Positions 13,308 through 56,084 of a stretch of 64,000 bases of DNA are shown one piece after another. Origin of the DNA: Trypanosoma brucei (Eukaryota); NCBI GenBank assembly GCA_000002445.1, contig CP000071.1:640001-704000 (forward strand). Reading direction: 5' to 3'. Within the stretch, counting starts at the first letter, position 1. Every line of letters begins with the position of its first letter. The notes under the pieces are model-generated. The model was not told where the DNA came from. It saw nothing but the letters and a program-made list of their open reading frames with translations, and made no database searches. Position numbers and translations under genes: made by a program.

Positions 13308-13499
13308 TACAAAGAAAATAAATTGCATGTGATAAGTAAAAAAAAAAACAGCACACAACCTACCCCAGAAGAAGTACACTGTAACCGCAACCATTTACCA
13401 CTACAACTAAAAAACTTATTCACCATTAAGAAAATGGTAGTGATACTTCTTACAAAACAACTCGTGAAGGCAGACGGGTACGTTAAATACTTGTGAGGG

Positions 13500-13915
13500 T
13501 GCCAGTGATTATACGTAATGTCTTTGCTACAGGTGATTGTACGATATGACCATACCGACTAAACCAACCGAGATCAATGAGGCATGAAATGTTCCCGCCC
13601 TGTTTTCAATTAAGTGACGGTGTGATTACAGACAGGACGTAAGTGAGTCAATGTCAATATCTCCGTATTACACCATGAGGACTATTGTCCCCCGTGTCTG
13701 ACCGCCGCTTCCACCTCCTCTCTCCCTTCTTTTCTCCTTTCTTGTTTCTTCTCTTTCACTTACACATGATGTCATTTCGTATTCTGCAATACTGACAATA
13801 ACTTGAGCGAGACAAGACATATTTGACTACTGGCAACTGAAACCCGCCACCCTCTCGGATTCTTTGGTCCTCCACTAGTTACTCAACGGTATTTCACTTT
13901 AGCTCAGCGTATATA
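13500..13915 (+). repeat. X element copy 1 (about 416 bp non-coding repeat containing a 64-nt polypyrimidine tract)
   Basis: tgccagtgattatacgtaatgtctttgctacagg ... ctttagctcagcgtata recurs at 17194-17607 and 51294-51710. Confidence 0.85.
13702..13765 (+). promoter_or_regulatory. long polypyrimidine tract (candidate trans-splicing/polyadenylation coupling signal) inside X element
   Basis: ccgccgcttccacctcctctctcccttcttttctcctttcttgtttcttctctttcacttacac; essentially pure pyrimidine for about 64 nt, followed by AG dinucleotides; same tract in all three X copies. Confidence 0.4.
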
Positions 13916-14364
13916 TGAATATAACGTCCACGGAGCTATAAGATGTTCCCATTACCTACCTTTATTGTTATCACGAGGCTCAAAAGAACACACTGAGCGT
14001 GTACCAATGCCCAGTGAGTGGGACAGCCATCGAAGATAAGTGTTTGTTTTACGGCAATGAGGTTCGAATGCGCCTGACGGTTTTTGTCCGACGTGGTGTG
14101 GGAAACGCCTCAAAGAAGTTACTGCACCTACACCTTCATTTTCACGGGTATATATTATCCCTGGTCACTAATTGATGTTTGGTATGTTTAATCTGTCACT
14201 GAACACTACTCACTTGTTTCCCCAGTGTAAGTGTGTTATCTTTCCCGTCTGTGCATTCACATGAATTTTAACTTTTATTACTCATAAATTATGTTTTGCC
14301 TCAATTATATAGACACCGCTTTATACGCAATTTTAAGCAAGGAAGTCCAACAAGGTGAATTATA

Positions 14365-14964
14365 ATGGGTTGTGGAGGTTCAGCTCCTGCTAACAAAGAC
14401 AAGCATGTGGGTGCAGATCCACCAAAACCTTCAGAGCATTCGGAACATTCAAAACCTTCAGATCCTTCAGATCCTGCTGATGCTACTCGATTTAAGCAGT
14501 TTTGCACACTTCCACTACATGACAAGGATAAGCCAGTTGCTGCTGCAGCAATTAGGGTTACCGACCCCAAGTGTATTTCGGATATTTTACCTCCGGAATT
14601 CCTTGAGGGAAAGAAGGTGCATAATGAATTTTGTGCAATTACTCTCTCCTTCGATGATGGAAAGCCGGAGGATGAAGGCCTTTTTGAGAAGTTGAAGGAA
14701 TTGGAAGGTACTTCCATCGAATTGAAACCAACCCATATTGTGATGAATGAAAAAGTCGCCGCCATTGGGGTGTGTAATAATGATGAATTCCCCTGCCAGG
14801 ACGCACACCCGCATATCCTCGTTGCAACTGCTCCAGATGCCACACAGGAAGATATTGATGATGTAACCAAGAAAGGAAAGATTAAGATATTTTGCGCGAG
14901 AAAACTTCCCGATCTGCCACCTGATATCACCATCCCAGGCGAGTTTCGTTTCATGCACTGGTGA
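14365..14964 (+). CDS. acylated 2H-phosphoesterase-like protein, A-type (degenerate H-x-T-x motifs), copy 1 of 4
   Basis: 199 aa. N-terminal MGCGGS has Gly2 and Cys3 for acylation and Ser6, and is followed by a P/S/D/E-rich linker. Clear homolog of gene B over its full length, but motif 1 is FCAITLSFDDG (catalytic His lost) and motif 2 is HPHILVATAP (Thr to Leu). Confidence 0.75.
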   Translation: MGCGGSAPANKDKHVGADPPKPSEHSEHSKPSDPSDPADATRFKQFCTLPLHDKDKPVAAAAIRVTDPKCISDILPPEFLEGKKVHNEFCAITLSFDDGKPEDEGLFEKLKELEGTSIELKPTHIVMNEKVAAIGVCNNDEFPCQDAHPHILVATAPDATQEDIDDVTKKGKIKIFCARKLPDLPPDITIPGEFRFMHW

Positions 14965-16023
14965 GTATTTCCCTGTTCCTTGTGTTTCAATGGTTTCACA
15001 AGAGTACATATGAATTGTTGTAAGTGTGCTGGCAGTTGCTGTTACTCTGATCGATCAAAGAGTTAGTGGTACTGCGCTTCATTACTTTATTACTTTTGCT
15101 ATTTTGTTTTACGAATTTACTTGCCTTTGTCCCTTCTTACTTTCCTTTTGATAACCTTTAGATATTTGCGTGTGGAGGTTTTGGTTTACTGTTATCCACA
15201 TCTGGGGCTATATTCCCTTCATTTGAATTTTATTATTGCGGTATTGACTTTTTCTTTCAAAGAAGATGATGAACATTGGAATAACGAATAGGGACGATAC
15301 GAGGGGAATGAAGAAAAGGCAGAAAAATGATACGGAGAGGAGGGAAAGACAAAATACAAACAACATGTGGGAGAGATATTTTTGCTTTGCTTTGGTTTGA
15401 TATCTGTTTTGTTTGTTTTTTTTCGTTGTGTTCGATGTTTTTTTGATCTTATTTTCCGAGACTTTATTATACAGGATTTGTTTAACTTATGTACTTTATT
15501 ACCTATTGCTTGTGTGCCATTGTTGTGTTACTATGAAACATTTATTGGTGTGGCAGAATAAAATGTGTTTTGGCATTGCTTTCCACAAGTAACCGAAGGG
15601 CACCAAATATTTGCTACGGGAGAGCACTGAAATGAAAGGAAACAACTGAACACACTGAGCGTGTACCAATGCCCAGTGAGTGGGACAGCCATCGAAGATA
15701 AGTGTTTGTTTTACGGCAATGAGGTTCGAATGCGCCTGACGGTTTTTGTCCGACGTGGTGTGGGAAACGCCTCAAAGAAGTTACTGCACCTACACCTTCA
15801 TTTTCACGGGTATATATTATCCCTGGTCACCAATTGATGTTTGGTATGTTTAATCTGTCACTGAACACTACTCACTTGTTTCCCCAGTGTAAGTGTGTTA
15901 TCTTTCCCGTCTGTGCATTCACATGAATTTTAACTTTTATTACTCATAAATTATGTTTTGCCTCAATTATATAGACACCGCTTTATACGCAATTTTAAGC
16001 AAGAAAGTCCAACAAGGTGACTG

Positions 16024-16584
16024 ATGATGGGTTGTGGAGGTTCTAAATTGTCTGCTAAGAGCAAACAAGCGGATGCGGATCCACCAAAGCCTTCAGATCC
16101 TGCTGATGCTCATCGATTTGAGCGGATTTGTACACTTCCACTACATGATGGTGAGAAACCGATGATCTTCGGTGCAATTATGATAAATGATCTTGCCGCG
16201 GTCAGATCCCTTGTGCCTGCAGATTACCTTGAGGGCAAAAATATGCAGGATGAATTTCACATAACTACAATTTATCTTGGGGGGAAACCGCCACAAGACG
16301 ATGAACTTTTCAAAAAGTTACAAACGTTGGAAGGTACTTCCATCCAGGTGGCACCTGTCCGTATCGCGTCCGACGCAAAGGCAACAGCAATTGAAATTCG
16401 TAACAATAACGAATTCCCATGCCAAAATGTACACCCGCACATTACCATTGCTACTGCTCCCGGTGTACCAGCGAAGTATAGCAATGAGCTGCTAAGCAAA
16501 GTAAGCACTGAAACAAGCGACATCAAGGTAATGGAGTTGTCACCTGATGTATCCATTTCAGGTGTGTTTCAGTTTGTGCGGTGA
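16024..16584 (+). CDS. acylated LigT/CNPase-like 2H phosphoesterase, B-type (both H-x-T-x motifs intact); true start probably the second ATG at 16027 (MGCGGSK)
   Basis: 186 aa. MMGCGGSK N-terminus. Motif 1 EFHITTIYLGG matches the canonical 2H pattern h-H-h-T-h-x-[FY]-L-G. Motif 2 HPHITIATAP, about 62 residues later, matches p-H-I-T-h. From LQTLEGTS to the stop it is nucleotide-identical, apart from 3 SNPs, to the 3' end of the 48146..50689 gene. Confidence 0.75.
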   Translation: MMGCGGSKLSAKSKQADADPPKPSDPADAHRFERICTLPLHDGEKPMIFGAIMINDLAAVRSLVPADYLEGKNMQDEFHITTIYLGGKPPQDDELFKKLQTLEGTSIQVAPVRIASDAKATAIEIRNNNEFPCQNVHPHITIATAPGVPAKYSNELLSKVSTETSDIKVMELSPDVSISGVFQFVR

Positions 16585-17193
16585 TGAACACCTCTTTCTT
16601 CATGTTCTTTTCGGTATAACCTACAGAAGTAACGATGAGTACATTAACGGTTGTTGTTTGTTGTGCTCATCGATGAGGCATTAATACCACCCTTTGTTTT
16701 TCCTTTTTTTCTTCTTTGAATCATTAATAAATTTTATCTTGCTTTGTACAAACAATTTTACGTGATTTATTTTGTCCTTAGACGTAGACAATAATTTTGA
16801 TGATAGTGTTTATGTGGACGAATATATTTCTCTCCTTTGCAATTCACGATTGGATCCAAGTATATTGATGGGAACTTGTGACTTAGGGGAAACGAGTGGT
16901 GTGCTGACATGCTCTCGCAGCACTGATATTCCCCCATAATGCTATGCACTCTGAACTGCATGTGTTGTGTCTGTGTGTATGTGTATACATGGTGTGTCGT
17001 ATGTCCTTTTTGTCTCTGTACAACAATAACCTTATACTACGCATCTTGTTACATTCCAACTTTTTCTCTCTAAAAATATACCTAATTTTACAACAAATTA
17101 GGAGGAGGAGGAGTGTGTCTTAACATTGTTTATGTGCCGTATCGTGATGACAGATATTCAGCTGACGCCACACTCATCGGATGTAAGAAAATG

Positions 17194-17607
17194 TGCCAGT
17201 GATTATACGTAATGTCTTTGCTACAGGTGATTGTACGATATGACCATACCGACTAAACCAACCGAGATCAATGAGGCATGAAATGTTCCCGCCCCGTTTT
17301 CAATTAAGTGACGGTGTGATTACAGACAGGACGTAAGTGAGTCAATGTCAATATCTCCGTATTACACCATGAGGACTATTGTCCCCCGTGTCTGACCGCC
17401 GCTTCCACCTCCTCTCTCCCTTCTTTTCTCCTTTCTTGTTTCTTCTCTTTCACTTACACATGATGTCATTTCGTATTCTGCAATACTGACAATAACTTGA
17501 GCGAGACAAGACATATTTGACTACTGGCAACTGAAACCCGCCACCCTCTCGGATTCTTTGGTCCTCCACTAGTTACTCAACGGTATTTCACTTTAGCTCA
17601 GCGTATA
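17194..17607 (+). repeat. X element copy 2
   Basis: Same sequence as 13500-13915 and 51294-51710. Confidence 0.85.
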
Positions 17608-39739: not shown

Positions 39740-42700
39740 GTGGCTCACGCCATGGATACAACCAATGGCGGTGGGAACTGTAACGTTCGGGGCCTTGGGG
39801 GAAGTCTCATTCGGCTGTTGGAACTTTACCCTGTTAAGCAAGTAGCTGCCGATGAGGGAACCACGGAAACGGAGCAGGGTATGAGCAAAGAAGAAGTTAA
39901 CTCACCGTCACCGGTGAAATCGCAGAGGGAAGGGAACATGAAAAGGAATCGTGTGGTGAATTCCCATCCGCCCAAACAAGATGTACTAGATTGTGCCGAA
40001 GTGGGTCAGTACCTGATTGCGACGGGAAGTAAGGACAAGGTGTCGGCAATGCAAGCAAACGTTCTTGAGGTCAGATCGGCGCTCAGTGCTCCGTCTCCTG
40101 TGGCCATACCGAACGCGAATCAGTGTCCCTCGAACGTTCTCCTGACTCCTCTAGTACCTACCGGCGAGTATGTACCGTCCTATGACACGAAGGAGCAAAT
40201 AAAATATTCACTCGTCGGCGAGCCGGGCACTAGGTGCCAATCTCCTTTGCCTCTCTTCCGCGGGAGCCGTGTCGACGACCAGGTGCGGGAAGCAACGATG
40301 TTCTTCAGTAACCTCCTCGCAGCTCGGCAACACGAGTGTGCCGATCAGGAAATGGGGCCGCTTCATGGCGGCTCTGGTGCGCCGTATCAGCTGCCAGCGT
40401 TTTATGACATCTTGAGCCGAACCATCGGTACCTCCCGTAGTCGCGAGGCCGGCCAAGAATCGAGGGAAGCGGGTGGTTATCTTCCTCTAATTTCACCAGT
40501 TCATGCCGGTGCAACCTCCTCTGGGCGCCTGTTTAGAGGTGTGCGCCACAGTAGTGCTCGGTTGAGGTCAAATACGCCACTCGGCAATGACTTTTGTGTT
40601 GGTGGAGTATGCGGACTGATGGGTAGAAGACTGATAGGTGTGCCCGTGCATGACCGCAGGCTTAACGCGCATTTGATGTCATCGTGGGAAAAGGGCGTTA
40701 AGGCAAGGTTACCCGCGAGAAAGGCGTTCAAGGCCATAAAGTCCTCATGTTGGTGGCGGCTGGCGGGCTCACGTGAAGGATTGTTGCTGGCTGCGCGGCT
40801 CGTCAACCTCGATGCTGATGTTTACGAAAGTTTGCTGACACGCTGGGTGGATGGAATCCGCCACTCCTATACCCGGTTTGTGACCGTGAATGTTGATGCT
40901 TTTGTCTCAGAGGACATTGGCCAAAATTTAATTACTGGGCCAAGGGGGAGAAAGTTGGGACCTGTATTGCCCTTTAGTGGTTCTGAGGCGGTGATGAACT
41001 CGTTGTTCCCAGGTGACGTCGAATTGAGTGATATGTTGGGTGTGGCTCGACAACTAGGTTATTTGCAAATGGGAGGGGCCCTTTGCGAAGATGATGTGGC
41101 GCGAGTGTTGCAATGTGACACAAGAACTATCCAACGGGAGCTGCGTCGGCTCATGCTCCAGCGAAGTGGAGGGACCGTGCAGCCACTCGGTGTATTACCC
41201 ATATTTGAAGGGAAGGGATGCCGTTTATACGAACCTAATACCGCTATCAGACAGATTTCGAGGGCAATTCTGCGTGCGAGACGGAGGGCTGCAGCGGAGG
41301 AGGCCAAGAAGAAGGGCAGGAAAATTAGATTCAGCCTGCTTCCGGACGTTACGACGTGCTCTAGGGTTCTGCAGCGCCGTCTTCAAAAGATCGCCGCCAG
41401 CAGGCCAGGGGATGTTCAGGCTCTACTTGAGCAACTGGGGGTGCTTGCCGACGCCGTTAATAGCGGAGGATTAGAGAGTATAAAAAGCTGCCCCGAAGTG
41501 TTGAGTCGTCTCCAGGAAATTATTGCGGACATGCCCCCCGATGTGCAAGCTTCACTTCAGCAGCTGGGGTTCCTCACTGACGATAGCGGTAGGATTTCGG
41601 TGAGTTCTGACGGGCGGCCTCGTGTTTCCCGGGGCCGTTCCAGGAAGGCAGCAAACGTTGTGCCTAGCAACGTTCACAAATTTTTGAAGAAGCTGGACAA
41701 TATTTCTCGAACTATCACTGGTGGTGGCCCCCCGGAGTCGGATGGCTCCGCTGAACTTCTGCAGCGCGGTCTTCAAGAGATCGCCGCCAGCAGGCCAGGG
41801 GATGTTCAGGCTCTACTTGAGCAACTGGGGGTGCTTGCCGACGCCGTTAATAGCGGAGGATTAGAGAGTATAAAAAGCTGCCCCGAAGCGTTGAGTCGTC
41901 TCCAGGAGATTGCTGCCAGCATGCCTCCCGACGTACGAGCTTCACTTCAGCAGCTGGGGTTCCTTCCAGATGGTGACGGCGTAATTGGCGTTGAAAATTT
42001 GTGTGAAGTGGCGAAAAGACAGCAGGAACTAAGTTCTGGTGCTCCTCACCCGTCGGAGGGAATGCGGGGTGCGACAACTGAGGGGTTGAAGAGTCCAACA
42101 GAAGGCGCCTCGTTCAGTGTATCTGCACGCCGCAAAATTCGAAGGAGGACACCAAAAGTAGTGAAAATGGCAGCAGCAGACGAGAAGGGACCTATTGTAC
42201 ACAACGTGCCTCCATCTTCTGTGAAGGACCAAGGCGAAGGTCCCGCTGCCAGGGATAAATCGGCACTCTCCGCCTCCTCTCCGTTAGGTGACGAAGCAAC
42301 TGCCTGGCCCGGAAACCACGCGGCATTCGCCGTCGATGAGTCGGAGGCCGATGCAAAAGACCAGAGTTGGGAAGATACCGCATTTGGGACCAAAAAGGGG
42401 CTGTTGAAGAAGAGACGACGGTTGAGAAGTAAGACGTCCAGCGAGCTCGAGACCCTCACCGATGACGATGCAGAGAGGGCACTCTTTGCGGACAAGCATG
42501 CCAGTTTCGGCAAGCGGTCGTCCCCTGGAAGGTTTAGAGGGCGTACATCGCCCATGGGGGTTTTGGGAATTGAAAGTTTTCCAACTAGTGGAGATGCTGA
42601 TGATCCATTATCGGGCTTCGTTGCATCTCAGCTGAAGGAAAGCTATTCGGGGCCTCAGGAGGGTGAAGAAACAGACGATTACGAGTATACTCCGCGCGAG

Positions 42701-44239
42701 AGGAGCAGGATGAATCGATCAAGAGCACAGCCTGTGTTTTCTGAATGGGACACCGAACAACTACCCCCACAGTTGCCTTCTGGTGCCAAGGATCCCAGGC
42801 TCTTATCGCAGACGGCGAGCATATTGGTGTTTCCTAACAGCGGGAGGAGAGGAAGCAGAGCAGCATCCGTTGCGTCGCGAACGGCATGTAGTGATACTGA
42901 AAGTGTTCGAGGCGTGGAGGACCCGTGGGAGCTCAGCAGCATGTTCAGCAACGATGATAATGAACTTGCGCTGTTTCTCGCAACATTCCCTGATGAGGAA
43001 CGCCACGTACAATTGCGTCGGGAGGCGCACCGTGTCTTGGATGACATCAATGCCGGAAGCAAAGTTCTGGAGGAGTACGCGATAAAATTGAAGGTGCGGC
43101 CCTCGAGCATGGGCCCGTCTGCCGGAGCCGGAGGTGGAATGCAGCCGTGCGAGCAAGAGTGGACTGAACGGGACGAGCAGATGGAGAAGCGTATGCTTGA
43201 GTGCAGAGTGGACATTCAGAGCATGGTGGAGCGCTTCAAGGCAGAGGCGCAGGAGGAGTATGCCGACCTCTGGCGTACGCTTCAGGAGCTTCGGAAACGA
43301 GTGGAGGTCCAAGAAGCTTTGCTTGAGGAGACCAAGTTGGATATAAACCGTCTTTCGTATCCTATGGAGGGTGAAGACACTGATGCCTTCGCACTGAGGC
43401 TGACGCGCGAGGTGAATGCATTTGCCGAACAAAACAAACTGGACCCGCAGCAGCTGAAAGATTTGACAACCGCGAAGCAGGACCGTGAAGCCGCCGTGCG
43501 CAGCTTTCTAGAAAGCTTTGCGCGAACGCGCGGCCGACGGGGAGGTGTAAGTGTTGGGTGCCAATGCACACCAAAAGATCTGGGGTACATCGACACGGAA
43601 GTACTAGAACTTAACAAACAAATGGAGGATCTACAATACCATGCACGTGGCCTGCTTAATTCGATTAAGCTTGTTGTTATATCTATGGGGAATGTACTAA
43701 GTTTCCACTCCGCACTTGAGCTGGAGTCGACATGCAAGCGTTGCTTTTGTATCTTCGAGGAACCCCGGACCTTATGGCCCTGTGGACATTCGTTTTGCTT
43801 GCATTGCCTTACGCAGATGATCTCCAAGGGAGGCGAACTTATATGCGATGAATGTGGGACGCTCTGCCTGGTTGGTTACACACCGAACTTTGCCATTGAA
43901 ATGGTGGCCGGCTACCAACTTATGTGGATCAACTCCGCTGAGGACGATGTGAGCGAGGATTCCTTGTGTAGTTCACCTTCCCCCAAAAGCAGCCTCACGA
44001 GCAGTAACAGTAAAGGCAGTAAACCCTCATCTCATGCAGGGCAAAAGCGTCGTACAGTTGAGAAGGTGCTGGCGGGTCTGCTAAAGGACCTTCTTAGTAC
44101 ACAGGGCTCAGGCAAAGCCACAAGGAAGACAGAGCGGAAGTCAAAGAAGCCCTCCAAGTCAACCTCTGGCGAGTTACCTCTACCGCCGTTGAAAGGGGGC
44201 CTTCCACCGTCGGCGGCAACTAAGGTTCAGTGTGCTTGA
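39740..44239 (+). CDS. large RING-finger (C3HC4) protein with coiled-coil and an internal 130-aa repeat; putative E3 ubiquitin ligase
   Basis: C-terminal CKRCFCIFEEPRTLWPCGHSFCLHCLTQMISKGGELICDECGTLC is a RING-HC. Long coiled-coil before it. Two copies of LQ(R/K)IAASRPGDVQALLEQLGVLADAVNSGGLESIKSCPE.LSRLQEI..MPPDV.ASLQQLGFL. Confidence 0.75.
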   Translation: MAHAMDTTNGGGNCNVRGLGGSLIRLLELYPVKQVAADEGTTETEQGMSKEEVNSPSPVKSQREGNMKRNRVVNSHPPKQDVLDCAEVGQYLIATGSKDKVSAMQANVLEVRSALSAPSPVAIPNANQCPSNVLLTPLVPTGEYVPSYDTKEQIKYSLVGEPGTRCQSPLPLFRGSRVDDQVREATMFFSNLLAARQHECADQEMGPLHGGSGAPYQLPAFYDILSRTIGTSRSREAGQESREAGGYLPLISPVHAGATSSGRLFRGVRHSSARLRSNTPLGNDFCVGGVCGLMGRRLIGVPVHDRRLNAHLMSSWEKGVKARLPARKAFKAIKSSCWWRLAGSREGLLLAARLVNLDADVYESLLTRWVDGIRHSYTRFVTVNVDAFVSEDIGQNLITGPRGRKLGPVLPFSGSEAVMNSLFPGDVELSDMLGVARQLGYLQMGGALCEDDVARVLQCDTRTIQRELRRLMLQRSGGTVQPLGVLPIFEGKGCRLYEPNTAIRQISRAILRARRRAAAEEAKKKGRKIRFSLLPDVTTCSRVLQRRLQKIAASRPGDVQALLEQLGVLADAVNSGGLESIKSCPEVLSRLQEIIADMPPDVQASLQQLGFLTDDSGRISVSSDGRPRVSRGRSRKAANVVPSNVHKFLKKLDNISRTITGGGPPESDGSAELLQRGLQEIAASRPGDVQALLEQLGVLADAVNSGGLESIKSCPEALSRLQEIAASMPPDVRASLQQLGFLPDGDGVIGVENLCEVAKRQQELSSGAPHPSEGMRGATTEGLKSPTEGASFSVSARRKIRRRTPKVVKMAAADEKGPIVHNVPPSSVKDQGEGPAARDKSALSASSPLGDEATAWPGNHAAFAVDESEADAKDQSWEDTAFGTKKGLLKKRRRLRSKTSSELETLTDDDAERALFADKHASFGKRSSPGRFRGRTSPMGVLGIESFPTSGDADDPLSGFVASQLKESYSGPQEGEETDDYEYTPRERSRMNRSRAQPVFSEWDTEQLPPQLPSGAKDPRLLSQTASILVFPNSGRRGSRAASVASRTACSDTESVRGVEDPWELSSMFSNDDNELALFLATFPDEERHVQLRREAHRVLDDINAGSKVLEEYAIKLKVRPSSMGPSAGAGGGMQPCEQEWTERDEQMEKRMLECRVDIQSMVERFKAEAQEEYADLWRTLQELRKRVEVQEALLEETKLDINRLSYPMEGEDTDAFALRLTREVNAFAEQNKLDPQQLKDLTTAKQDREAAVRSFLESFARTRGRRGGVSVGCQCTPKDLGYIDTEVLELNKQMEDLQYHARGLLNSIKLVVISMGNVLSFHSALELESTCKRCFCIFEEPRTLWPCGHSFCLHCLTQMISKGGELICDECGTLCLVGYTPNFAIEMVAGYQLMWINSAEDDVSEDSLCSSPSPKSSLTSSNSKGSKPSSHAGQKRRTVEKVLAGLLKDLLSTQGSGKATRKTERKSKKPSKSTSGELPLPPLKGGLPPSAATKVQCA
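41371..41967 (+). repeat. Intragenic tandem duplication with 390-bp period: about 207 bp at 41371-41577 is near-identical to 41761-41967
   Basis: gcagcgc(c/g)gtcttcaa(a/g)agatcgccgccagcaggccaggggatgttcaggctctacttgagcaactgggggtgcttgccgacgccgttaatagcggaggattagagagtataaaaagctgccccgaag... present twice. Confidence 0.85.
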
Positions 44240-46482: not shown

Positions 46483-47904
46483 ATGCGGCGGGCTTCGCAT
46501 GTTTGCACGTCGTGTGAACTGCTGGGTTTCCAGAAGCAATTTCTCATGCTCTCCAACCGCGGTAATAGCAGTGGTGATAATGACGTCATCGATACAAGTG
46601 GCGGCAAGTTCCGCAACGGCAATGGGGATGGAAAAGACGACGATGTTGTGACACCATGGAATGTTTCTGCCACCGGAGTGCGGGGTGTCAACTATGATCG
46701 TGTGTTGGTGCGATTTAAGTCCCAACCTATCGGTGAGCCACTGTTAAAAAGGATGCAGGATGTTTGTGTTGAAAGAGTGAAATGCAATAATAGCGAAAGA
46801 GGACACAATGCGGAAAGGAGTGCAGTGGGTGAAGAGGTGCAGCCATTGCATCACTTCTTCAGGCGTGGCATAGCCTTTTCGCACAGAGATTTTGACATCG
46901 CACTGACCAACGTGCAGGAAGCCTTAAGATCGGGAACTCAGGGAGCGTATTTATACACTGGTCGCGGTCCGAGTACGCGGACAATGCATCTTGGACACGT
47001 GATACCCTTTATGCTTACGCGCTACCTGCAGGATGCGCTCGGGCTGCCGCTAGTCATCCAAATCACCGACGATGAGAAGTTTTTTTTTCGCGATGTACCG
47101 TTGCATGACAACCGATGCTCGGACGGAATTGATATTGTAACCGAAAACATAAAGGATATTATTGCATTTGGCTTTGACCCTAAACGGACGTTTATTTTCC
47201 GGAACACCTCCTACATGGGTAGCATGTATCCTACCGTTGTTCGCCTGCAGCGCACAATGACACTCAGTGCCGTGAAGAATACGCTGGGATTGATCGATAA
47301 TGACAATATCGGGAAAGCCTCCTTCGCTGCTACTCAAGCAGCGCCTTGCTTCAGTAGCTCCTTTCCGTGCATCCTTGGAGAACAAGATTTTGAAAAGCCT
47401 CTACAGTGTATTGTGCCATGTGCCATTGATCAGGATCCGTACTTCGTTCTGGCGCGGGCATCGGCATCCCGCATGAAGTATCGAGCTCCCGCACTACTGC
47501 ATACAAAATTCCTTCCAGCTTTGAAGGGGATGAGACTAAAGATGAGTAGTAGTGCCGAGGAGAGCGGTGTGATAACATTGCACGACTCACCGGAGCAAGT
47601 ACAAAAGAAGATGAAGAAGGCTTTCTCCGGCGGTAGTGGGACACTGGACGACATGAAGACGAAAGGCGTGGATTTGGAGGCCGATGTGGCCTACCAATTC
47701 ATTCGGTTTTTCTCTCCGGACGACGAGATGGTTGGGGAGGTATCGGCAAAGTATGTGGTTGGTGAGATGAACAGCTGTTATGTGAAGAGCTTAGCCGCAG
47801 ATGTTGTCGTCCGGCATGTGCTGCGCAACTGGCAAGCGAAGCGAAAGCTGGTGACAGATGAGGAGGTTCGGCGGTTTACGGAGGTGCGCAACATTATGGC
47901 GTAG
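46483..47904 (+). CDS. tryptophanyl-tRNA synthetase (class I), with N-terminal extension consistent with the mitochondrial isoform
   Basis: HIGH-type motif TGRGPSTRTMHLGHVIPF; KMSKS-type motif KMSSSAEESG; about 90-aa Arg/Ser-rich N-terminal presequence-like extension. Confidence 0.85.
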   Translation: MRRASHVCTSCELLGFQKQFLMLSNRGNSSGDNDVIDTSGGKFRNGNGDGKDDDVVTPWNVSATGVRGVNYDRVLVRFKSQPIGEPLLKRMQDVCVERVKCNNSERGHNAERSAVGEEVQPLHHFFRRGIAFSHRDFDIALTNVQEALRSGTQGAYLYTGRGPSTRTMHLGHVIPFMLTRYLQDALGLPLVIQITDDEKFFFRDVPLHDNRCSDGIDIVTENIKDIIAFGFDPKRTFIFRNTSYMGSMYPTVVRLQRTMTLSAVKNTLGLIDNDNIGKASFAATQAAPCFSSSFPCILGEQDFEKPLQCIVPCAIDQDPYFVLARASASRMKYRAPALLHTKFLPALKGMRLKMSSSAEESGVITLHDSPEQVQKKMKKAFSGGSGTLDDMKTKGVDLEADVAYQFIRFFSPDDEMVGEVSAKYVVGEMNSCYVKSLAADVVVRHVLRNWQAKRKLVTDEEVRRFTEVRNIMA

Positions 47905-48145: not shown

Positions 48146-50689
48146 ATGGACGCGCAAGTTGGAGTTGTTCAGCAACCGGTGACCACTAGTTCAACGATTT
48201 GGGTTGGGGAATGTCAATGTCCAAAATGGAAAAAATCTACCCACCGTGCGGTTGAGCAAAACCTGACGACTTCACTAGAATGCGGTGGAGAAAGAGATGC
48301 ACTCCTTGATGTTGCTTGCGGAAGTGGCATTGACATAGATTCTTTCCTTAGAGAGAAGTGGATTCGTGTAGCATTTACTTCTAGTTTCGGAAGTAACAGT
48401 AGGGTCCGCGTGCGGGCGAGAAGGGTGAGGATAGGTAGCCATGAGTTTGTCGTGGTGGAACGGAACGTTTTTGGGTGTGATGACTCGGTATATCGAAAGG
48501 ATAACAAACTTTGGGAGGGTTTGCCCCGTGGGCAGGCCTGCGTATTTGTCGAATCGGGCGACAGGGCTGGGTTTATACCCATAGGTAGACTTCAAGGCCT
48601 GCGGAAGTTCAATTCCTTCGACGGACCATATGGTATTAGGGGAAGGCAACCCGTTAGTGCTGTTGCGATGGAGGCCATCGACGGGGACTGTGGTCATATC
48701 TCTGCGTTCGTGCACACTGGAGAGCGGTATTGGCTTGTTGGGAACAAAGATACTCACCTATTAGTAAGCTTCAGTGTACCAGAGAAAGATATATTCTCCA
48801 ACACCGCCGAAGGTGGTGCCATAACGAATGAGGGGGACAAGCCACTTCAGGGGGCTAACTATTCACCTCCGTCGCTAGCGGTGCGGATAGCAAGGCTCTG
48901 GGGTCAAACGCTTCGAGCACTTCCCGATGAAAAATCATTCGGTTTGCATGAGTTTTTGTCTTCAAACAGGTACACGGCTTGCTTCGACGCTGTGCTACAG
49001 GACTGTGGACACCTTGTCGACTACGGTGAAGATGAACTTCTACAGTTTTACGCTCTGACCCAAAGTGGTGAATCGCTAGCAGAGGGCTTGTGCGTGGATC
49101 CAGTTAGCGCTATAGTAAACCTGCAGTCCTTTGGTCTTCGTGTAGTCCCCTTCCATAGTGAGCAATGCTCATCAGTACCTGAAATTCTGGATCTTGGAAC
49201 GGACGAGTATTCGCAGTACGGGGGCCAGGTTGCGCGTCGTCTGAACTGCAGAGGAGCGGTTATGTACGGCTTGGACGCCCAGGGCATTGTGGTTCGGTTG
49301 TGGAAGTTACCTTCGCACGCATACGTGGTTGAGCGTGCGGCACAGGAGGCCATTGTGACGCATCGCCTGAGCGGTACCGTCTTGCGCGACAAGTTGCGGA
49401 GGAAGTTAGACCGCTTGCCGAAAGAAATACGACGATGTGTCACTGAATGGAGTTCAGCCCGTCTTGAGCCATTGTTGAACCTTGCAGCGTGGTTGCACAT
49501 TATGGGGAAAGTAACACCGGAGGTTGGCCTCGATGGATTGCAGGAGGTCCGTCGCAGTTGGATAACACTTCAACAGCAACTTGTGAAGCACACAAAGGAC
49601 ATGCGTGAGCACTTACAACTGTACGAGCCCCCAGTGGCCGAGGCAGCTATCAATAACCCGGACGTCATCATGTGTGTGGGGCCACAAGGTTGTGGCAAGT
49701 CCACGTTTTGTCGCGCTTTCTGTGTCTTACTCCAGAAGGTAGGTCAGAAGCCTCGTTGGATCAACCAGGACGAAGTGGGTGGTCGAAATGAGTTTATCGA
49801 GGCCATCCGACGTGCCAAGGAATCCGACTGTACACATATTCTTATAGATAAAATGAATCTTGACGATGCGGCACGAAATGCTGACTACGCCTCTTTCAAC
49901 CTAAAAACGATAACCGTCGCTTGGGTACATCCTTGTGATGTAGACGTTATGGTAAGTACGTGCCTAGAAAGAGTATGCCATCGCGGCAATGCACATCGCA
50001 CATTCAGAGGAACCGTCTCCCCGGGGAAAAAGAGGAAAATGATGACAATTATCCGTGGGTGTGTACAGCGATGCGAACCACCAACAACAGGGATTGTTAT
50101 TGAGGCCAATGTCTTGGACCCCCCGGCCATAACCATAGAATCTGTGTGGAAAGGTCTCTGCCGACACACAATGTCTGAACTTCCAGATATTAAAGATCTT
50201 TCCGTTGCCGACGCGTTGGAAATTGCTCGTAGGTACGAATTACTCTTGTCACACTCATCGCGTCCCTTCAATTGCGGCATCATAAAGGTTGTGAATTCAG
50301 AACTTCTTGTCGCCCTTGTGCCTGCAGATTACCTTGAGGGCAAAAAAATGCGCAAGGAACTCGACATCAGCACAATCTATCTTGGTGACAGATCCCATTT
50401 CGATCTTACGCTTCTGTCAGAGTTACAAACGTTGGAAGGTACTTCCATCCAGGTGGCACCTGTCCGTATCGCGTCCGACGCAAAGGCAACAGCAATTGAA
50501 ATTCGTAACAATAACGAATTCCCATGCCAAAATGCACACCCACACATTACCATTGCTACTGCTCCCGGTGTACCAGCGAAGTATAGCAATGAGCTGCTAA
50601 GCAAAGTAAGCACTGAAACAAGCGACATCAAGGTAATGGAGGTGTCACCTGATGTATCCATTTCAGGTGTGTTTCAGTTTGTGCGGTGA
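48146..50689 (+). CDS. multidomain protein: about 480-aa N-terminal domain, then polynucleotide-kinase-like P-loop, then C-terminal LigT/CNPase-like 2H domain. The architecture resembles CNPase and the kinase-CPD module of Trl1-type tRNA ligase
   Basis: Walker A VIMCVGPQGCGKSTF at about aa 510, with downstream D-x-x-N-L-D (HILIDKMNLDD). The C-terminal 150 aa are homologous to genes A and B: motif 2 HPHITIATAP is intact, motif 1 is ELDISTIYLGD (His to Asp). The last about 260 nt and the 3' flank are identical to gene B. Confidence 0.7.
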   Translation: MDAQVGVVQQPVTTSSTIWVGECQCPKWKKSTHRAVEQNLTTSLECGGERDALLDVACGSGIDIDSFLREKWIRVAFTSSFGSNSRVRVRARRVRIGSHEFVVVERNVFGCDDSVYRKDNKLWEGLPRGQACVFVESGDRAGFIPIGRLQGLRKFNSFDGPYGIRGRQPVSAVAMEAIDGDCGHISAFVHTGERYWLVGNKDTHLLVSFSVPEKDIFSNTAEGGAITNEGDKPLQGANYSPPSLAVRIARLWGQTLRALPDEKSFGLHEFLSSNRYTACFDAVLQDCGHLVDYGEDELLQFYALTQSGESLAEGLCVDPVSAIVNLQSFGLRVVPFHSEQCSSVPEILDLGTDEYSQYGGQVARRLNCRGAVMYGLDAQGIVVRLWKLPSHAYVVERAAQEAIVTHRLSGTVLRDKLRRKLDRLPKEIRRCVTEWSSARLEPLLNLAAWLHIMGKVTPEVGLDGLQEVRRSWITLQQQLVKHTKDMREHLQLYEPPVAEAAINNPDVIMCVGPQGCGKSTFCRAFCVLLQKVGQKPRWINQDEVGGRNEFIEAIRRAKESDCTHILIDKMNLDDAARNADYASFNLKTITVAWVHPCDVDVMVSTCLERVCHRGNAHRTFRGTVSPGKKRKMMTIIRGCVQRCEPPTTGIVIEANVLDPPAITIESVWKGLCRHTMSELPDIKDLSVADALEIARRYELLLSHSSRPFNCGIIKVVNSELLVALVPADYLEGKKMRKELDISTIYLGDRSHFDLTLLSELQTLEGTSIQVAPVRIASDAKATAIEIRNNNEFPCQNAHPHITIATAPGVPAKYSNELLSKVSTETSDIKVMEVSPDVSISGVFQFVR

Positions 50690-51293
50690 TGAACACCTCT
50701 TTCTTCATGTTCTTTTCGGTATAACCTACAGAAGTAACGATGAGTACATTAACGGTTGTTGTTTGTTGTGCTCATCGATGAGGCATTAATACCACCCTTT
50801 GTTTTTCCTTTTTTTCTTCTTTGAATCATTAATAAATTTTATCTTGCTTTGTACAAACAATTTTACGTGATTTATTTTGTCCTTAGACGTAGACAATAAT
50901 TTTGATGATAGTGTTTATGTGGACGAATATATTTCTTTGCAATTCACGATTGGATCCAAGTATATTGATGGGAACTTGTGACTTAGGGGAAACGAGTGGT
51001 GTGCTGACATGCTCTCGCAGCACTGATATTCCCCCATAATGCTATGCACTCTGAACTGCATGTGTTGTGTCTGTGTGTATGTGTATACATGGTGTGTCGT
51101 ATGTCCTTTTTGTCTCTATACAACAATAACCTTATACTACGCATCTTGTTACATTCCAACTTTTTCTCTCTAAAAATATACCTAATTTTACAACAAATTA
51201 GGAGGAGGAGGAGTGTGTCTTAACATTGTTTATGTGCCGTATCGTGATGACAGATATTCAGCTGACGCCACACTCATCGGATGTAAGAAGATG

Positions 51294-51710
51294 TGCCAGT
51301 GATTATACGTAATGTCTTTGCTACAGGTGATTGTACGATATGACCATACCGACTAAACCAACCGAGATCAATGAGGCATGAAATGTTCCCGCCCCGTTTT
51401 CAATTAAGTGACGGTGTGATTACAGACAGGATGTAAGTGAGTCAATGTCAATATCTCCGTATTACACCATGAGGACTATTGTCCCCCGTGTCTGACCGCC
51501 GCTTCCACCTCCTCTCTCCCTTCTTTTCTCCTTTCTTGTTTCTTCTCTTTCACTTACACATGATGTCATTTCGTATTCTGCAATACTGACAATAACTTGA
51601 GCGAGACAAGACATATTTGACTACTGGCAACTGAAACCCGCCACCCTCTCGGATTCTTTGGTCCTCCACTAGTTACTCAACGGTATTTCACTTTAGCTCA
51701 GCGTATATAT
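51294..51710 (+). repeat. X element copy 3
   Basis: Same sequence as 13500-13915. Confidence 0.85.
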
Positions 51711-52158
51711 GAATATAACGTCCACGGAGCTATAAGATGTTCCCATTACCTACCTTTATTGTTATCACGAGGCTCAAAAGAACACACTGAGCGTGTACCA
51801 ATGCCCAGTGAGTGGGACAGCCATCGAAGATAAGTGTTTGTTTTACGGCAATGAGGTTCGAATGCGCCTGACGGTTTTTGTCCGACGTGGTGTGGGAAAC
51901 GCCTCAAAGAAGTTACTGCACCTACACCTTCATTTTCACGGGTATATATTATCCCTGGTCACTAATTGATGTTTGGTATGTTTAATCTGTCACTGAACAC
52001 TACTCACTTGTTTCCCCAGTGTAAGTGTGTCATCTTTCCCGTCTGTGCATTCACATGAATTTTAACTTTTATTACTCATAAATTATGTTTTGCCTCAATT
52101 ATATAGACACCGCTTTATACGCAATTTTAAGCAAGGAAGTCCAACAAGGTGAATTATA

Positions 52159-52758
52159 ATGGGTTGTGGAGGTTCAGCTCCTGCTAACAAAGACAGGCAT
52201 GTGGGTGCAGATCCACCAAAACCTTCAGAGCATTCGGAACATTCAAAACCTTCAGATCCTTCAGATCCTGCTGATGCTACTCGTATTCACAAAATCTGTA
52301 CACTTCCACTACATGACAAGGATAAGCCAGTTGCTGCTGCAGCAATTAGGGTTACCGACCCCAAGTGTATTTCGGATATTTTACCTCCGGAATTCCTTGA
52401 GGGAAAGAAGGTGCATAATGAATTTTGTGCAATTACTCTCTCCTTCGATGATGGAAAGCCGGAGGATGAAGGCCTTTTTGAGAAGTTGAAGGAATTGGAA
52501 GGTACTTCCATCGAATTGAAACCAACCCATATTGTGATGAATGAAAAAGTCGCCGCCATTGGGGTGTGTAATAATGATGAATTCCCCTGCCAGGACGCAC
52601 ACCCGCATATCCTCGTTGCAACTGCTCCAGATGCCACACAGGAGGATATTGATGATGTAACCAAGAAAGGAAAGATTGAGATATTTTGCGCGAGAAAACT
52701 TCCCGATCTGCCACCTGATATCACCATCCCAGGTGAGTTTCGTTTCATGCACTGGTGA
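52159..52758 (+). CDS. acylated 2H-phosphoesterase-like protein, A-type, copy 2
   Basis: 199 aa; differs from copy 1 at a few residues (ATRIHKICTLP vs ATRFKQFCTLP; KGKIEIF vs KGKIKIF). Confidence 0.75.
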   Translation: MGCGGSAPANKDRHVGADPPKPSEHSEHSKPSDPSDPADATRIHKICTLPLHDKDKPVAAAAIRVTDPKCISDILPPEFLEGKKVHNEFCAITLSFDDGKPEDEGLFEKLKELEGTSIELKPTHIVMNEKVAAIGVCNNDEFPCQDAHPHILVATAPDATQEDIDDVTKKGKIEIFCARKLPDLPPDITIPGEFRFMHW

Positions 52759-53821
52759 GTATTTCCCTGTTCCTTGTGTTTCAATGGTTTCACAAGAGTA
52801 CATATGAATTGTTGTAAGTGTGCTGGCAGTTGCTGTTACTCTGATCGATCAAAGAGTTAGTGGTACTGCGCTTCATTACTTTATTACTTTTGCTATTTTG
52901 TTTTACGAATTTACTTGCCTTTGTCCCTTCTTACTTTCCTTTTGATAACCTTTAGATATTTGCGTGTGGAGGTTTTGGTTTACTGTTATACACATCTGGG
53001 GCTATATTCCCTTCATTTGAATTTTATTATTGCGGTATTGACTTTTTCTTTCAAAGAAGATGATGAACGTTGGAATAACGAATAGGGACGATACGAGGGG
53101 AATGAAGAAAAGGCAGAAAAATGATACGGAGAGGAGGGAAAGACAAAATACAAACAATATGTGGGAGAGATATTTTTGCTTTGCTTTGGTTTGATATCTG
53201 TTTTGTTTGTTTTTTTTTCGTTGTGTTCGATGTTTTTTTGATCTTATTTTCCGAGACTTTATTATACAGGATTTGTTTAACTTATGTACTTTATTACCTA
53301 TTGCTTGTGTGCCATTGTTGTGTTACTATGAAACATTTATTGGTGTGGCAGAGTAAAATGTGTTTTGGCATTGCTTTCCACAAGTAACCGAAGGGCACCA
53401 AATATTTGCTACGGGAGAGCACTGAAATGAAAGGAAACAACTAAACACACTGAGCGTGTACCAATGCCCAGTGAGTGGGACAGCCATCGAAGATAAGTGT
53501 TTGTTTTACGGCAATGAGGTTCGAATGCGCCTGACGGTTTTTGTCCGACGTGGTGTGGGAAACGCCTCAAAGAAGTTACTGCACCTACACCTTCATTTTC
53601 ACGGGTATATATTATCCCTTGTCACTAATTGATGTTTGGTATGTTTAATCTGTCACTGAACACTACTCACTTGTTTCCCCAGTGTAAGTGTGTCATCTTT
53701 CCCGTCTGTGCATTCACATGAATTTTAACTTTTATTACTCATAAATTATGTTTTGCCTCAATTATATAGACACCGCTTTATACGCAATTTTAAGCAAGGA
53801 AGTCCAACAAGGTGAATTATA

Positions 53822-54421
53822 ATGGGTTGTGGAGGTTCAGCTCCTGCTAACAAAAACAGGCATGTGGGTGCAGATCCACCAAAACCTTCAGAGCATTCGG
53901 AACATTCAAAACCTTCAGATCCTTCAGATCCTGCTGATGCTACTCGTATTCACAAAATCTGTACACTTCCACTACATGACAAGGATAAGCCAGTTGCTGC
54001 TGCAGCAATTAGGGTTACCGACCCCAAGTGTATTTCGGATATTTTACCTCCGGAATTCCTTGAGGGAAAGAAGGTGCATAATGAATTTTGTGCAATTACT
54101 CTCTCCTTCGATGATGGAAAGCCGGAGGATGAAGGCCTTTTTGAGAAGTTGAAGGAATTGGAAGGTACTTCCATCGAATTGAAACCAACCCATATTGTGA
54201 TGAATGAAAAAGTCGCCGCCATTGGGGTGTGTAACAATGATGAATTCCCCTGCCAGGACGCACACCCGCATATCCTCGTTGCAACTGCTCCAGATGCCAC
54301 ACAGGAGGATATTGATGATGTAACCAAGAAAGGAAAGATTAAGATATTTTGCGCGAGAAAACTTCCCGATCTGCCACCTGATATCACTATCCCAGGTGAG
54401 TTTCGTTTCATGCACTGGTGA
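53822..54421 (+). CDS. acylated 2H-phosphoesterase-like protein, A-type, copy 3
   Basis: 199 aa; ANKNRHVG variant, KGKIKIF. Confidence 0.75.
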   Translation: MGCGGSAPANKNRHVGADPPKPSEHSEHSKPSDPSDPADATRIHKICTLPLHDKDKPVAAAAIRVTDPKCISDILPPEFLEGKKVHNEFCAITLSFDDGKPEDEGLFEKLKELEGTSIELKPTHIVMNEKVAAIGVCNNDEFPCQDAHPHILVATAPDATQEDIDDVTKKGKIKIFCARKLPDLPPDITIPGEFRFMHW

Positions 54422-55484
54422 GTATTTCCCTGTTCCTTGTGTTTCAATGGTTTCACAAGAGTACATATGAATTGTTGTAGGTGTGCTGGCAGTTGCTGTT
54501 ACTCTGATCGATCAAAGAGTTAGTGGTACTGCGCTTCATTACTTTATTACTTTTGCTATTTTGTTTTACGAATTTACTTGCCTTTGTCCCTTCTTACTTT
54601 CCTTTTGATAACCTTTAGATATTTGCGTGTGGAGGTTTTGGTTTACTGTTATACACATCTGGGGCTATATTCCCTTCATTTGAATTTTATTATTGCGGTA
54701 TTGACTTTTTCTTTCAAAGAAGATGATGAACGTTGGAATAACGAATAGGGACGATACGAGGGGAATGAAGAAAAGGCAGAAAAATGATACGGAGGGGAGG
54801 GAAAGACAAAATACAAACAATATGTGGGAGAGATATTTTTGCTTTGCTTTGGTTTGATATCTGTTTTGTTTGTTTTTTTTTCGTTGTGTTCGATGTTTTT
54901 TTGATCTTATTTTCCGAGACTTTATTATACAGGATTTGTTTAACTTATGTACTTTATTACCTATTGCTTGTGTGCCATTGTTGTGTTACTATGAAACATT
55001 TATTGGTGTGGCAGAATAAAATGTGTTTTGGCATTGCTTTCCACAAGTAACCGAAGGGCACCAAATATTTGCTACGGGAGAGCACTGAAATGAAAGGAAA
55101 CAACTAAACACACTGAGCGTGTACCAATGCCCAGTGAGTGGGACAGCCATCGAAGATAAGTGTTTGTTTTACGGCAATGAGGTTCGAATGCGCCTGACGG
55201 TTTTTGTCCGACGTGGTGTGGGAAACGCCTCAAAGAAGTTACTGCACCTACACCTTCATTTTCACGGGTATATATTATCCCTGGTCACTAATTGATGTTT
55301 GGTATGTTTAATCTGTCACTGAACACTACTCACTTGTTTCCCCAGTGTAAGTGTGTCATCTTTCCCGTCTGTGCATTCACATGAATTTTAACTTTTATTA
55401 CTCATAAATTATGTTTTGCCTCAATTATATAGACACCGCTTTATACGCAATTTTAAGCAAGGAAGTCCAACAAGGTGAATTATA

Positions 55485-56084
55485 ATGGGTTGTGGAGGTT
55501 CAGCTCCTGCTAACAAAGACAGGCATGTGGGTGCAGATCCACCAAAACCTTCAGAGCATTCGGAACATTCAAAACCTTCAGATCCTTCAGATCCTGCTGA
55601 TGCTACTCGTATTCACAAAATCTGTACACTTCCACTACATGACAAGGATAAGCCAGTTGCTGCTGCAGCAATTAGGGTTACCGACCCCAAGTGTATTTCG
55701 GATATTTTACCTCCGGAATTCCTTGAGGGAAAGAAGGTGCATAATGAATTTTGTGCAATTACTCTCTCCTTCGATGATGGAAAGCCGGAGGATGAAGGCC
55801 TTTTTGAGAAGTTGAAGGAATTGGAAGGTACTTCCATCGAATTGAAACCAACCCATATTGTGATGAATGAAAAAGTCGCCGCCATTGGGGTGTGTAATAA
55901 TGATGAATTCCCCTGCCAGGACGCACACCCGCATATCCTCGTTGCAACTGCTCCAGATGCCACACAGGAGGATATTGATGATGTAACCAAGAAAGGAAAG
56001 ATTGAGATATTTTGCGCGAGAAAACTTCCCGATCTGCCACCTGATATCACCATCCCAGGTGAGTTTCGTTTCATGCACTGGTGA
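55485..56084 (+). CDS. acylated 2H-phosphoesterase-like protein, A-type, copy 4
   Basis: 199 aa; identical to copy 2. Confidence 0.75.
   Translation: MGCGGSAPANKDRHVGADPPKPSEHSEHSKPSDPSDPADATRIHKICTLPLHDKDKPVAAAAIRVTDPKCISDILPPEFLEGKKVHNEFCAITLSFDDGKPEDEGLFEKLKELEGTSIELKPTHIVMNEKVAAIGVCNNDEFPCQDAHPHILVATAPDATQEDIDDVTKKGKIEIFCARKLPDLPPDITIPGEFRFMHW

Follow-up and report, generated by a model that had tools for sequence, protein, structure and literature searches.

How do two unlike genes on one chromosome come to share a nearly identical 3′ end that begins abruptly inside their coding regions? The question arises in a 64,000-nucleotide (nt) stretch of Trypanosoma brucei TREU927 chromosome 8 (GenBank CP000071.1, positions 640,001–704,000 of a record of 2,481,190 bp), hereafter the window, where a small stand-alone gene, gene B, and a large multi-domain gene carry almost the same sequence from the middle of a 2H phosphoesterase domain to beyond their 3′ untranslated regions (UTRs). 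The answer that we consider probable is recurrent non-allelic gene conversion between dispersed repeats in the same orientation. The evidence comes from the edges of the shared tract, from the patchwork structure of gene B and from the way in which the two loci vary between strains.

A near-identical tract with sharp edges

The translation of gene B matches XP_847041 (T. brucei brucei TREU927) at 100% at the protein level, and the large open reading frame of 847 amino acids (aa; 48146–50689) corresponds to XP_847058. Upstream of the latter lies the mitochondrial TrpRS2 gene (46483–47904), which is presumably Tb927.8.2240. From this neighbour, from XP_847058 and from the name used in the literature (PMC10998879), the large gene is taken to be Tb927.8.2250, which has been called ‘a tRNA ligase phosphodiesterase’ (PMC10998879). 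The genes and the tract that they share are arranged as follows.

16024–16584, + strand: gene B; 186 aa as annotated; predicted stand-alone 2H/cyclic phosphodiesterase (CPD) phosphoesterase with the N terminus MGCGGS
48146–50689, + strand: the 847-aa large gene; DUF7920, tRNA-ligase-type P-loop kinase and CPD domain (Pfam)
16316–17607, + strand: the tract at locus 1; last 89 codons of B and the stop codon, 3′ UTR/spacer, copy 2 of a repeated element, X
50421–51707, + strand: the tract at locus 2; last 89 codons of Tb927.8.2250, 3′ UTR, X copy 3
17193–17607, + strand: X copy 2; 415 bp, right end of the locus-1 tract
51293–51707, + strand: X copy 3; 415 bp, right end of the locus-2 tract

Self-BLAST and a global pairwise alignment of 16316–17607 with 50421–51707 give 99.5% identity over 1,287 aligned bases, with six substitutions and a single 5-nt indel (CTCTC, 16830–16834). 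Three of the substitutions lie in coding sequence (16430, 16437 and 16537, two of them non-synonymous) and three downstream (17018, 17190 and 17332), such that the approximately 1,020 nt of UTR, spacer and X hold just three single-nucleotide polymorphisms (SNPs) and the indel. An earlier note on this DNA had counted three SNPs in all, which is correct for the coding part and too few for the whole tract, and had started the partner sequence near 50429, where the alignment gives 50421. High identity extends through synonymous sites and through about 600 nt of 3′ UTR/spacer; because identity is 99.5% at synonymous, 3′ UTR and intergenic positions, selection on the protein cannot explain the tract.

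The edges of the tract are abrupt. Immediately to its left, 16246–16315 is 52.9% identical between the genes (33 of 70 positions differ). Before that segment stands a 38-nt island (16208–16245, encoding LVPADYLEGK) at which B and the large gene agree in 37 positions, and upstream of 16208 the B and large-gene loci cannot be aligned. The right edge, at 17607/17608, is as abrupt as the left. In a maximum chi-square scan of the gap-free coding alignment the breakpoint comes out at 16316, with the observed value reached in none of 2,000 permutations, and a Fisher test of the left 70 nt against the tract gives p = 1.5e-40. The breakpoint falls in codon 98 of B, between the two HxT motifs of the 2H domain (motif 1, codons 79–82; motif 2, codons 139–142). 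The junction that the earlier note had placed between these motifs and ascribed to ectopic recombination is thus real, with sharp edges on both sides; the protein identity of about 60% that it gave for the 5′ side was an overestimate, the 27-residue stretches that it quoted agreeing at 11 residues (41%).

Gene B is a patchwork around a core of its own

The two loci have the same orientation and are separated by 34 kb, an interval that holds about 20 unrelated genes. The locus-1 block, 4.1 kb in size, is placed between a BEACH-domain gene and a cyclophilin gene (flanks identified from the T. b. equiperdum annotation). Both loci also carry a further gene, gene A, whose 199-aa products correspond to XP_847040 (A1) and XP_847059–61 (A2–A4).

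13499–17607, + strand: locus-1 block; order X, spacer, A1 unit, B unit, X
Locus 2: order large gene, 3′ UTR, X (51293–51707), 73-nt spacer, three 1.66-kb A units
14365–14964, + strand: gene A1; 199 aa, POMP39 family, N terminus MGCGGS, degenerate 2H motifs CAIT and HILV
52159–52758, 53822–54421 and 55485–56084, + strand: genes A2, A3 and A4, copies of A1
15648–~16015, + strand: A-type spacer upstream of B, which matches the first part of every A unit at ~100% identity
B codons 3–15: ~62% DNA identity to A
16068–16128, in B: ~85% DNA identity to A
~16130–16315, + strand: B-specific core of ~190 nt, which holds HxT motif 1 (HITT, 16258–16269)

A three-way sliding-window comparison of B, A and the large gene resolves an A-type flank, a core found in B only and a 3′ end of large-gene type. 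The core is 38–70% identical to A and, outside the island at 16208–16245, 33–72% identical to the large gene; at the protein level it is closest to homologues from T. congolense. Across the coding segment of B’s tract, A is only 33–72% identical to B. Gene B is a multi-patch mosaic around its own core, not a hybrid of A and the large gene. Its description as an A-like 5′ half joined to a large-gene 3′ end has to be given up, as the ~190-nt motif-1 core resembles neither; an A-like N terminus survives at the protein level, the DNA offering just patches of 62–85% identity. Exchange within one tandem array, also proposed earlier, does not fit two loci with so much unrelated sequence between them: the repeats are dispersed and the exchange ectopic.

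A second block of homology joins the loci, 13499–16097 matching 51293–53892 at 98.2% (self-BLAST), and the junction between the A1 and B units is identical to the A2-to-A3 and A3-to-A4 junctions. The repeats form a TB8Cs3 snoRNA/POMP39-like cluster, whose copy at locus 1 appears to have arisen by duplication from the locus that adjoins Tb927.8.2250.

The same boundary and concerted variants in a second strain

For a second strain we used T. b. equiperdum IVM-t1 (GCA_003543875.1), a MiSeq and low-coverage PacBio hybrid assembly polished with Pilon (PMC6395869), and made a four-way alignment of two paralogues in two strains. IVM-t1 holds both loci, with the architecture and breakpoint seen in TREU927. 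Within the tract, five sites are strain-specific and common to both paralogues, none is gene-specific and the rest are singletons; in the adjacent core, 103 sites distinguish B from the large gene and are kept in both strains. Over the tract, B and the large gene of TREU927 differ by fewer SNPs (6) than do the B genes of the two strains (10). Upstream of the breakpoint, equiperdum B has an A-type 36-nt SEHSEYSKPSDP insertion and a KQF patch, both absent from TREU927 B. The concerted sites and the strain-differing 5′ patches require exchange after the strains separated, and therefore indicate that homogenization is recurrent, with a stable left boundary. The single frozen ‘snapshot’ of the earlier note gives way to a boundary that is the same in both strains, with five concerted sites and no gene-specific one.

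The arrays differ in other ways between assemblies. Downstream of the large gene stand three A units in TREU927 (51781–56763) and one in IVM-t1 (L004, 13641–15288), and the A copy at locus 1 of IVM-t1 (L003, 8353–8991) is annotated as 212 aa with a different C terminus, which suggests a frameshift. In the chromosome 8 record of T. b. gambiense DAL972 (FN554971.1, L005), the left flank of locus 1 and the right flank of locus 2 are joined directly by one A unit, and about 40 kb (window 15634–55107) is absent, together with B, TrpRS2, the large gene and some 20 further genes; no DAL972 protein was found in the 90% clusters of three interval genes. Such a gap stems either from collapse of the assembly through the A repeats or from a real deletion between A units. 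The genes of the interval (SCU68286, SCU68290 and SCU68302) lie, in T. equiperdum OVI, on a contig of 34,478 bp, near the 33.7 kb that separate X copy 2 from copy 3, and an A gene lies on a 1.4-kb contig; the assembly seems to be broken at these repeats.

Different trees for the two segments among trypanosomes

B and the large gene give different trees for the segments 5′ and 3′ of the breakpoint. In the 3′ segment, B and the large gene of T. brucei group together (100/100), and the corresponding T. congolense pair is identical. In the 5′ segment, T. brucei B lies nearest the T. congolense pair, at 52% identity, and the T. brucei large gene stands apart on a long branch. Identity to other orthologues in this segment is 22–33% for the T. 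brucei large gene as against 35–40% for B. We had considered that the T. brucei large gene keeps an ‘ancestral large-gene type’ of motif-1 segment and dropped the idea, as an identity of 22–33% to its orthologues marks the segment as fast-evolving.

The surroundings of the domain vary from species to species. In T. congolense, the large-gene orthologue (P0004, CCC92006) and a 182-aa protein (P0002, CCC92007) have consecutive accessions, from which the small gene probably adjoins the large one; the whole 2H domain of the small protein is 94–100% identical to that of the large at the protein level. T. grayi has X, then a stand-alone 178-aa CPD gene, then orthologues of the window genes at 57135 and 58275, and its stand-alone gene thus occupies the position of the T. 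brucei A array. The T. grayi large gene was not returned by the homologue search with the stand-alone protein, a search that gave no full-length large-gene proteins for short queries. In T. vivax, the interval from the large gene to the next conserved gene holds no stand-alone copy, and the large-gene orthologue of T. cruzi has DGF-1 genes on its flanks. No other A-type cluster turned up in a profile search of 1.84 billion representatives.

Small nucleolar RNA genes, known and putative, in the tract and in the A-type flank

The shared sequence is not only protein-coding. Known and putative small nucleolar RNA (snoRNA) genes of the TB8Cs3 cluster lie in the tract and in the A-type flank, and the earlier note had overlooked them.

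13499–13913, + strand: X copy 1; 415 bp
15719–15781, + strand: H/ACA snoRNA TB8Cs3H1 upstream of B (Rfam RF01550)
14057–14119, 51851–51913, 53514–53576 and 55177–55239: other TB8Cs3H1 copies
17316–17395 (also 13622–13701 and 51416–51495), + strand: C/D-box snoRNA-like gene a (GTGATTA ... CTGA)
17460–17534 (also 13766–13840 and 51560–51634), + strand: C/D-box snoRNA-like gene b (ATGATGT ... CTGA ... CTGA)

TB8Cs3H1 (RF01550; 80.5 bits against a gathering score of 45, E = 5e-17) occurs in five copies in the window. It opens every A unit, and the copy of B sits within the A-type upstream flank. The three X copies agree pairwise at 413–414 of 415 positions. Neither snoRNA-like gene of X matches an Rfam family, even at E-values up to 1. 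The boxes and 3′ guide of gene a are kept in T. cruzi (L002, ~13890–13923) and at the start of T. grayi contig L006, as are, in both species, the guide-plus-box segments TTCTGCAATAC and TTTGACTACTGGCAACTGA of gene b. Given its C/D boxes and its conservation in syntenic position in T. cruzi and T. grayi, we took X to be a spacer with putative snoRNA genes and rejected the idea that it is a transposon remnant. In the T. vivax locus neither TB8Cs3H1 nor X was detected.

The position of X bears on direction. In T. cruzi its snoRNA-like genes follow the large-gene orthologue at a distance of about 1.4 kb, on the downstream side (L002, ~13890–14045); in T. grayi they lie at the very start of the contig (L006, 1–116), upstream of the stand-alone CPD gene. 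Because X stands downstream of the one and upstream of the other, we infer that the order at locus 2 (large gene, 3′ UTR, X) is ancestral and that the X copies of locus 1 and the 3′ flank of B are derived; the founding transfer would then have run from the large-gene locus to B.

Trypanosome snoRNA clusters are as a norm mixed, C/D with H/ACA, and genomically repeated (PMC3273796), and TB8Cs3C1–C3 are known methylation guides (PMC9283944). Nm sites have been reported at SSU 46 and 1603, 5.8S 75, and LSU-alpha 1608, 1620 and 1621. Like the trypanosomatid TB8Cs3 cluster (C1–C3 and H1), the present locus has H1, here five times, and two putative C/D-type genes lie in X. Unlike the usual clusters, its repeats are interleaved with the protein genes A and B, and one of them lies 34 kb off. 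An extra C/D-box-like candidate (TTGATGA ... CTGA, 111 nt) in the shared 3′ UTR, at 16797–16907, has no conserved counterpart in T. cruzi or T. grayi and could be a chance occurrence. Elsewhere in the window, a 208-bp direct repeat (41367–41574 and 41757–41964, 93.8% identical) lies inside a 1,499-aa open reading frame (39740–44239); the same repeat occurs in T. b. equiperdum (L004, 3217–3424 and 3607–3814).

Catalytic motifs on the two sides of the breakpoint

From its sequence and its structural model, gene B is predicted to be a cyclic phosphodiesterase, a 2H phosphoesterase of the Trl1-CPD/CNPase clade. It matches Pfam PF08302 (tRNA_lig_CPD) with 44.2 bits against a cut-off of 23. Its AlphaFold model has a predicted local distance difference test (pLDDT) score of 83, and the best Foldseek match of the model is the KIN-CPD structure of C. 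albicans Trl1 (6U05, E = 2.3e-6), with CNPase structures at E ~3e-6. Both HxT motifs are present, HITT at residues 79–82 (16258–16269) and HITI at residues 139–142 (16438–16449). In its family match, its two motifs and the fit of its model, B resembles the Trl1-CPD/CNPase system, whose 2H enzymes open a 2′,3′-cyclic phosphate to a 2′-phosphate. Unlike Trl1, B is a stand-alone protein of 185 aa with an N-terminal MGC acylation-type motif.

In the CPD domain of the large gene, motif 1 reads DIST (50363–50374, residues 740–743) and motif 2 HITI (50543–50554). DIST occurs in TREU927 and equiperdum, whereas every other trypanosomatid orthologue has H-V/I-T-T/N, and the 5′ segment around DIST is the fastest-evolving in the family. 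Gene A has lost motif 1 (CAIT) and the threonine of motif 2 (HILV). By the two HxT/S motifs that mark the 2H family, B belongs among its members, and the large-gene CPD domain and A do not. As the earlier note had anticipated, the integrity of motif 1 follows the 5′ segment and motif 2 is common to both genes (HITT and HITI in B, DIST and HITI in the large gene).

The rest of the large protein sets it further apart. Its P-loop kinase matches PF08303 with 25.8 bits against 22.7 (GPQGCGKS, residues 512–519), and a sequence search of the PDB with the large protein found a P-loop kinase only; its N terminus matches DUF7920 in Pfam, not the Trl1 ligase domain. Unlike Trl1, then, the large gene has DUF7920 in place of the ligase domain and aspartate for histidine at motif 1. 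We rejected its identification as TbTrl1 on account of this N terminus and because TbTrl1 is a different protein, of 870 aa, with HVTV at 739–742 and 802–805 (PMC4931112); TbTrl1 mutants K107A, K403A and H802A have been described in a 2026 preprint. The DUF7920 model (48323–49375; pLDDT 75, predicted template-modelling score 0.80) has the Naegleria gruberi RNA ligase as all of its 12 best PDB matches, and these are weak (E = 2e-3 to 4e-2, TM ~0.35). In our reading of the alignment, the conserved E-x-I-D-G segment of DUF7920 has no lysine where the KxDG motif of ligases has one. With a ligase module that is divergent or inactive, the large gene may represent a second ‘heal-and-seal’ architecture of the Trl1-like kind.

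Both A and B begin with MGCGGS (Met-Gly-Cys, with Ser at position 6), an acylation-type motif that makes them putative targets of dual acylation (N-myristoyl and palmitoyl). CNPase is lipid-anchored. The annotation of B opens with two methionines (MMGCGGS; 16024–16029) and that of equiperdum at MGCGGS. N-myristoylation of B would require a start at the second ATG, at 16027, and this ATG is probably the functional start. A near-identical A protein of T. b. equiperdum, RHW71046.1 (P0020), is annotated as ‘Proteasome maturation protein 39A’, which looks like a wrong expansion of POMP39A, unrelated to proteasome maturation factors. The letters POMP abbreviate ‘present in the outer mitochondrial membrane proteome’. 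POMP39-1 has been cited as a bloodstream-form-specific protein (PMC7861527).

Probable recurrent conversion and the alternatives

We propose that gene B is an old stand-alone paralogue of the 2H (cyclic phosphodiesterase) domain of Tb927.8.2250. It lies in the dispersed copy of the TB8Cs3 snoRNA/POMP39-like cluster, 4.1 kb long, with the parent locus 34 kb downstream. After a founding transfer from the large-gene locus to B, homologous recombination would repeatedly have copied sequence between the two same-orientation loci, keeping the last 269 coding nt, the 3′ UTR and X with its putative snoRNA genes near-identical in B and the large gene. The upstream spacer and the N-terminal coding patches of B would have been homogenized with the A genes in like manner. 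Exchange would halt reproducibly at 16315/16316, where the 70-nt, 53%-identical segment with HxT motif 1 may block extension of heteroduplex; selection may also hold this segment distinct, with a catalytic histidine in B and an aspartate in the large gene.

Several points weigh against this account. The strain comparison at the DNA level covers two strains, and polishing by Pilon with multi-mapping reads could artificially homogenize near-identical repeats in IVM-t1, although that assembly still separates the two tract copies by three SNPs and a 3-nt indel. The near-identity of the T. congolense CPD domains, compared at the protein level, could stem from a recent independent duplication and not from conversion. 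In the 5′ segment, the bootstrap value that joins T. brucei B to T. congolense is weak (53/100).

The low divergence of the tract could also mean that it is simply young, the product of a one-off chimerization or of one recent segmental duplication with no exchange since; the identity of the A1-to-B junction with the A-to-A junctions of the other array, and a locus-1 block whose limits are exactly those of the outermost X sequence on either side, would suit such an event. It is nevertheless unlikely, as it does not account for the ~190 nt of B’s core that resemble neither proposed parent, for strain-specific variants common to both paralogues (five sites, with none gene-specific), for 5′ patches that differ between strains or for the unequal identities of the two homology blocks (98.2% versus 99.5%). 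That the tract is an assembly artefact, a repeat misjoined or collapsed and not truly present at both loci, is in our judgement very improbable: its copies differ at six positions and an indel and have unique flanks on both sides, the separately assembled IVM-t1 shows the same two-locus arrangement with variants of its own, and the annotation of T. congolense also has a large and a small gene with the same CPD sequence. What speaks for an artefact is the DAL972 record, which jumps from A1 to A4 with ~40 kb absent, and the 34.5-kb contig with the interval genes of T. equiperdum OVI, consistent with breaks at the repeats. Purifying selection alone, acting on the C-lobe of the protein and on the snoRNAs without any exchange of DNA, has virtually no chance of being the explanation, for although conserved stretches of protein (GVPAKYSNELL and others) and two snoRNA-like genes lie in the tract, identity is equally high at synonymous sites and in ~600 nt of 3′ UTR/spacer, and A is only 33–72% identical to B over the same coding segment.

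A further possibility, in our view quite an unlikely one, is that the boundary is held by selection: the two genes would split the labour, the T. brucei large protein having lost the first catalytic histidine of its CPD domain, in a fast-evolving N-lobe, and the putatively lipid-anchored B alone keeping an intact 2H site. If so, recurrent conversion would give both genes a common ‘repair template’ for the C-lobe and for the neighbouring snoRNA genes. Conversion that ran across motif 1 would either make B inactive or give the large protein its activity back, and for that reason would be counter-selected; T. congolense, with the whole domain homogenized and HITT in both copies, would represent the undivided state.

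Relation to known systems

The recurrent conversion proposed between these loci is to be set against the one systematic survey of T. brucei duplicates, in which ectopic conversion in core chromosomes was ‘very rare’ (Jackson 2007, BMC Evol Biol 7:54; PMC1855330). That survey implicated two arrays, with significant regions of ~110–200 bp, and its main text does not mention the present locus or array (PMC1855330); a T. brucei pangenome preprint and the T. b. gambiense genome paper hold nothing on this locus. As in the duplicates of that survey, homogenization is of partial length, phylogenetic affinity depends on the region and structural heterogeneity limits the homogenized stretch. Unlike those cases, the exchange joins a domain of a multi-domain gene to a stand-alone paralogue 34 kb away, over 1.3 kb and with putative snoRNA genes included. 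The mosaic variant surface glycoprotein (VSG) genes of T. brucei are likewise formed by homology-dependent partial-gene copying with breakpoints within the coding region; there, diversity arises in subtelomeric archives under immune selection, whereas here housekeeping-type genes of a core chromosome are homogenized.

Concerted evolution of T. brucei duplicates is already established; what the locus adds is a new case of a known process, and an unusually clean one, which does not overturn current understanding. The ectopic conversion seen here is of kilobase scale, its partners are non-equivalent genes of a T. brucei core chromosome, and its tract carries putative snoRNA genes as well. Assemblies can break or collapse at this repeat family. 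Among the T. brucei copies, the small, putatively acylated paralogue B is the only one to keep both catalytic histidines of a tRNA-ligase-type phosphodiesterase, and this motif status gives a concrete hypothesis for research on RNA end-healing enzymes and on POMP39.

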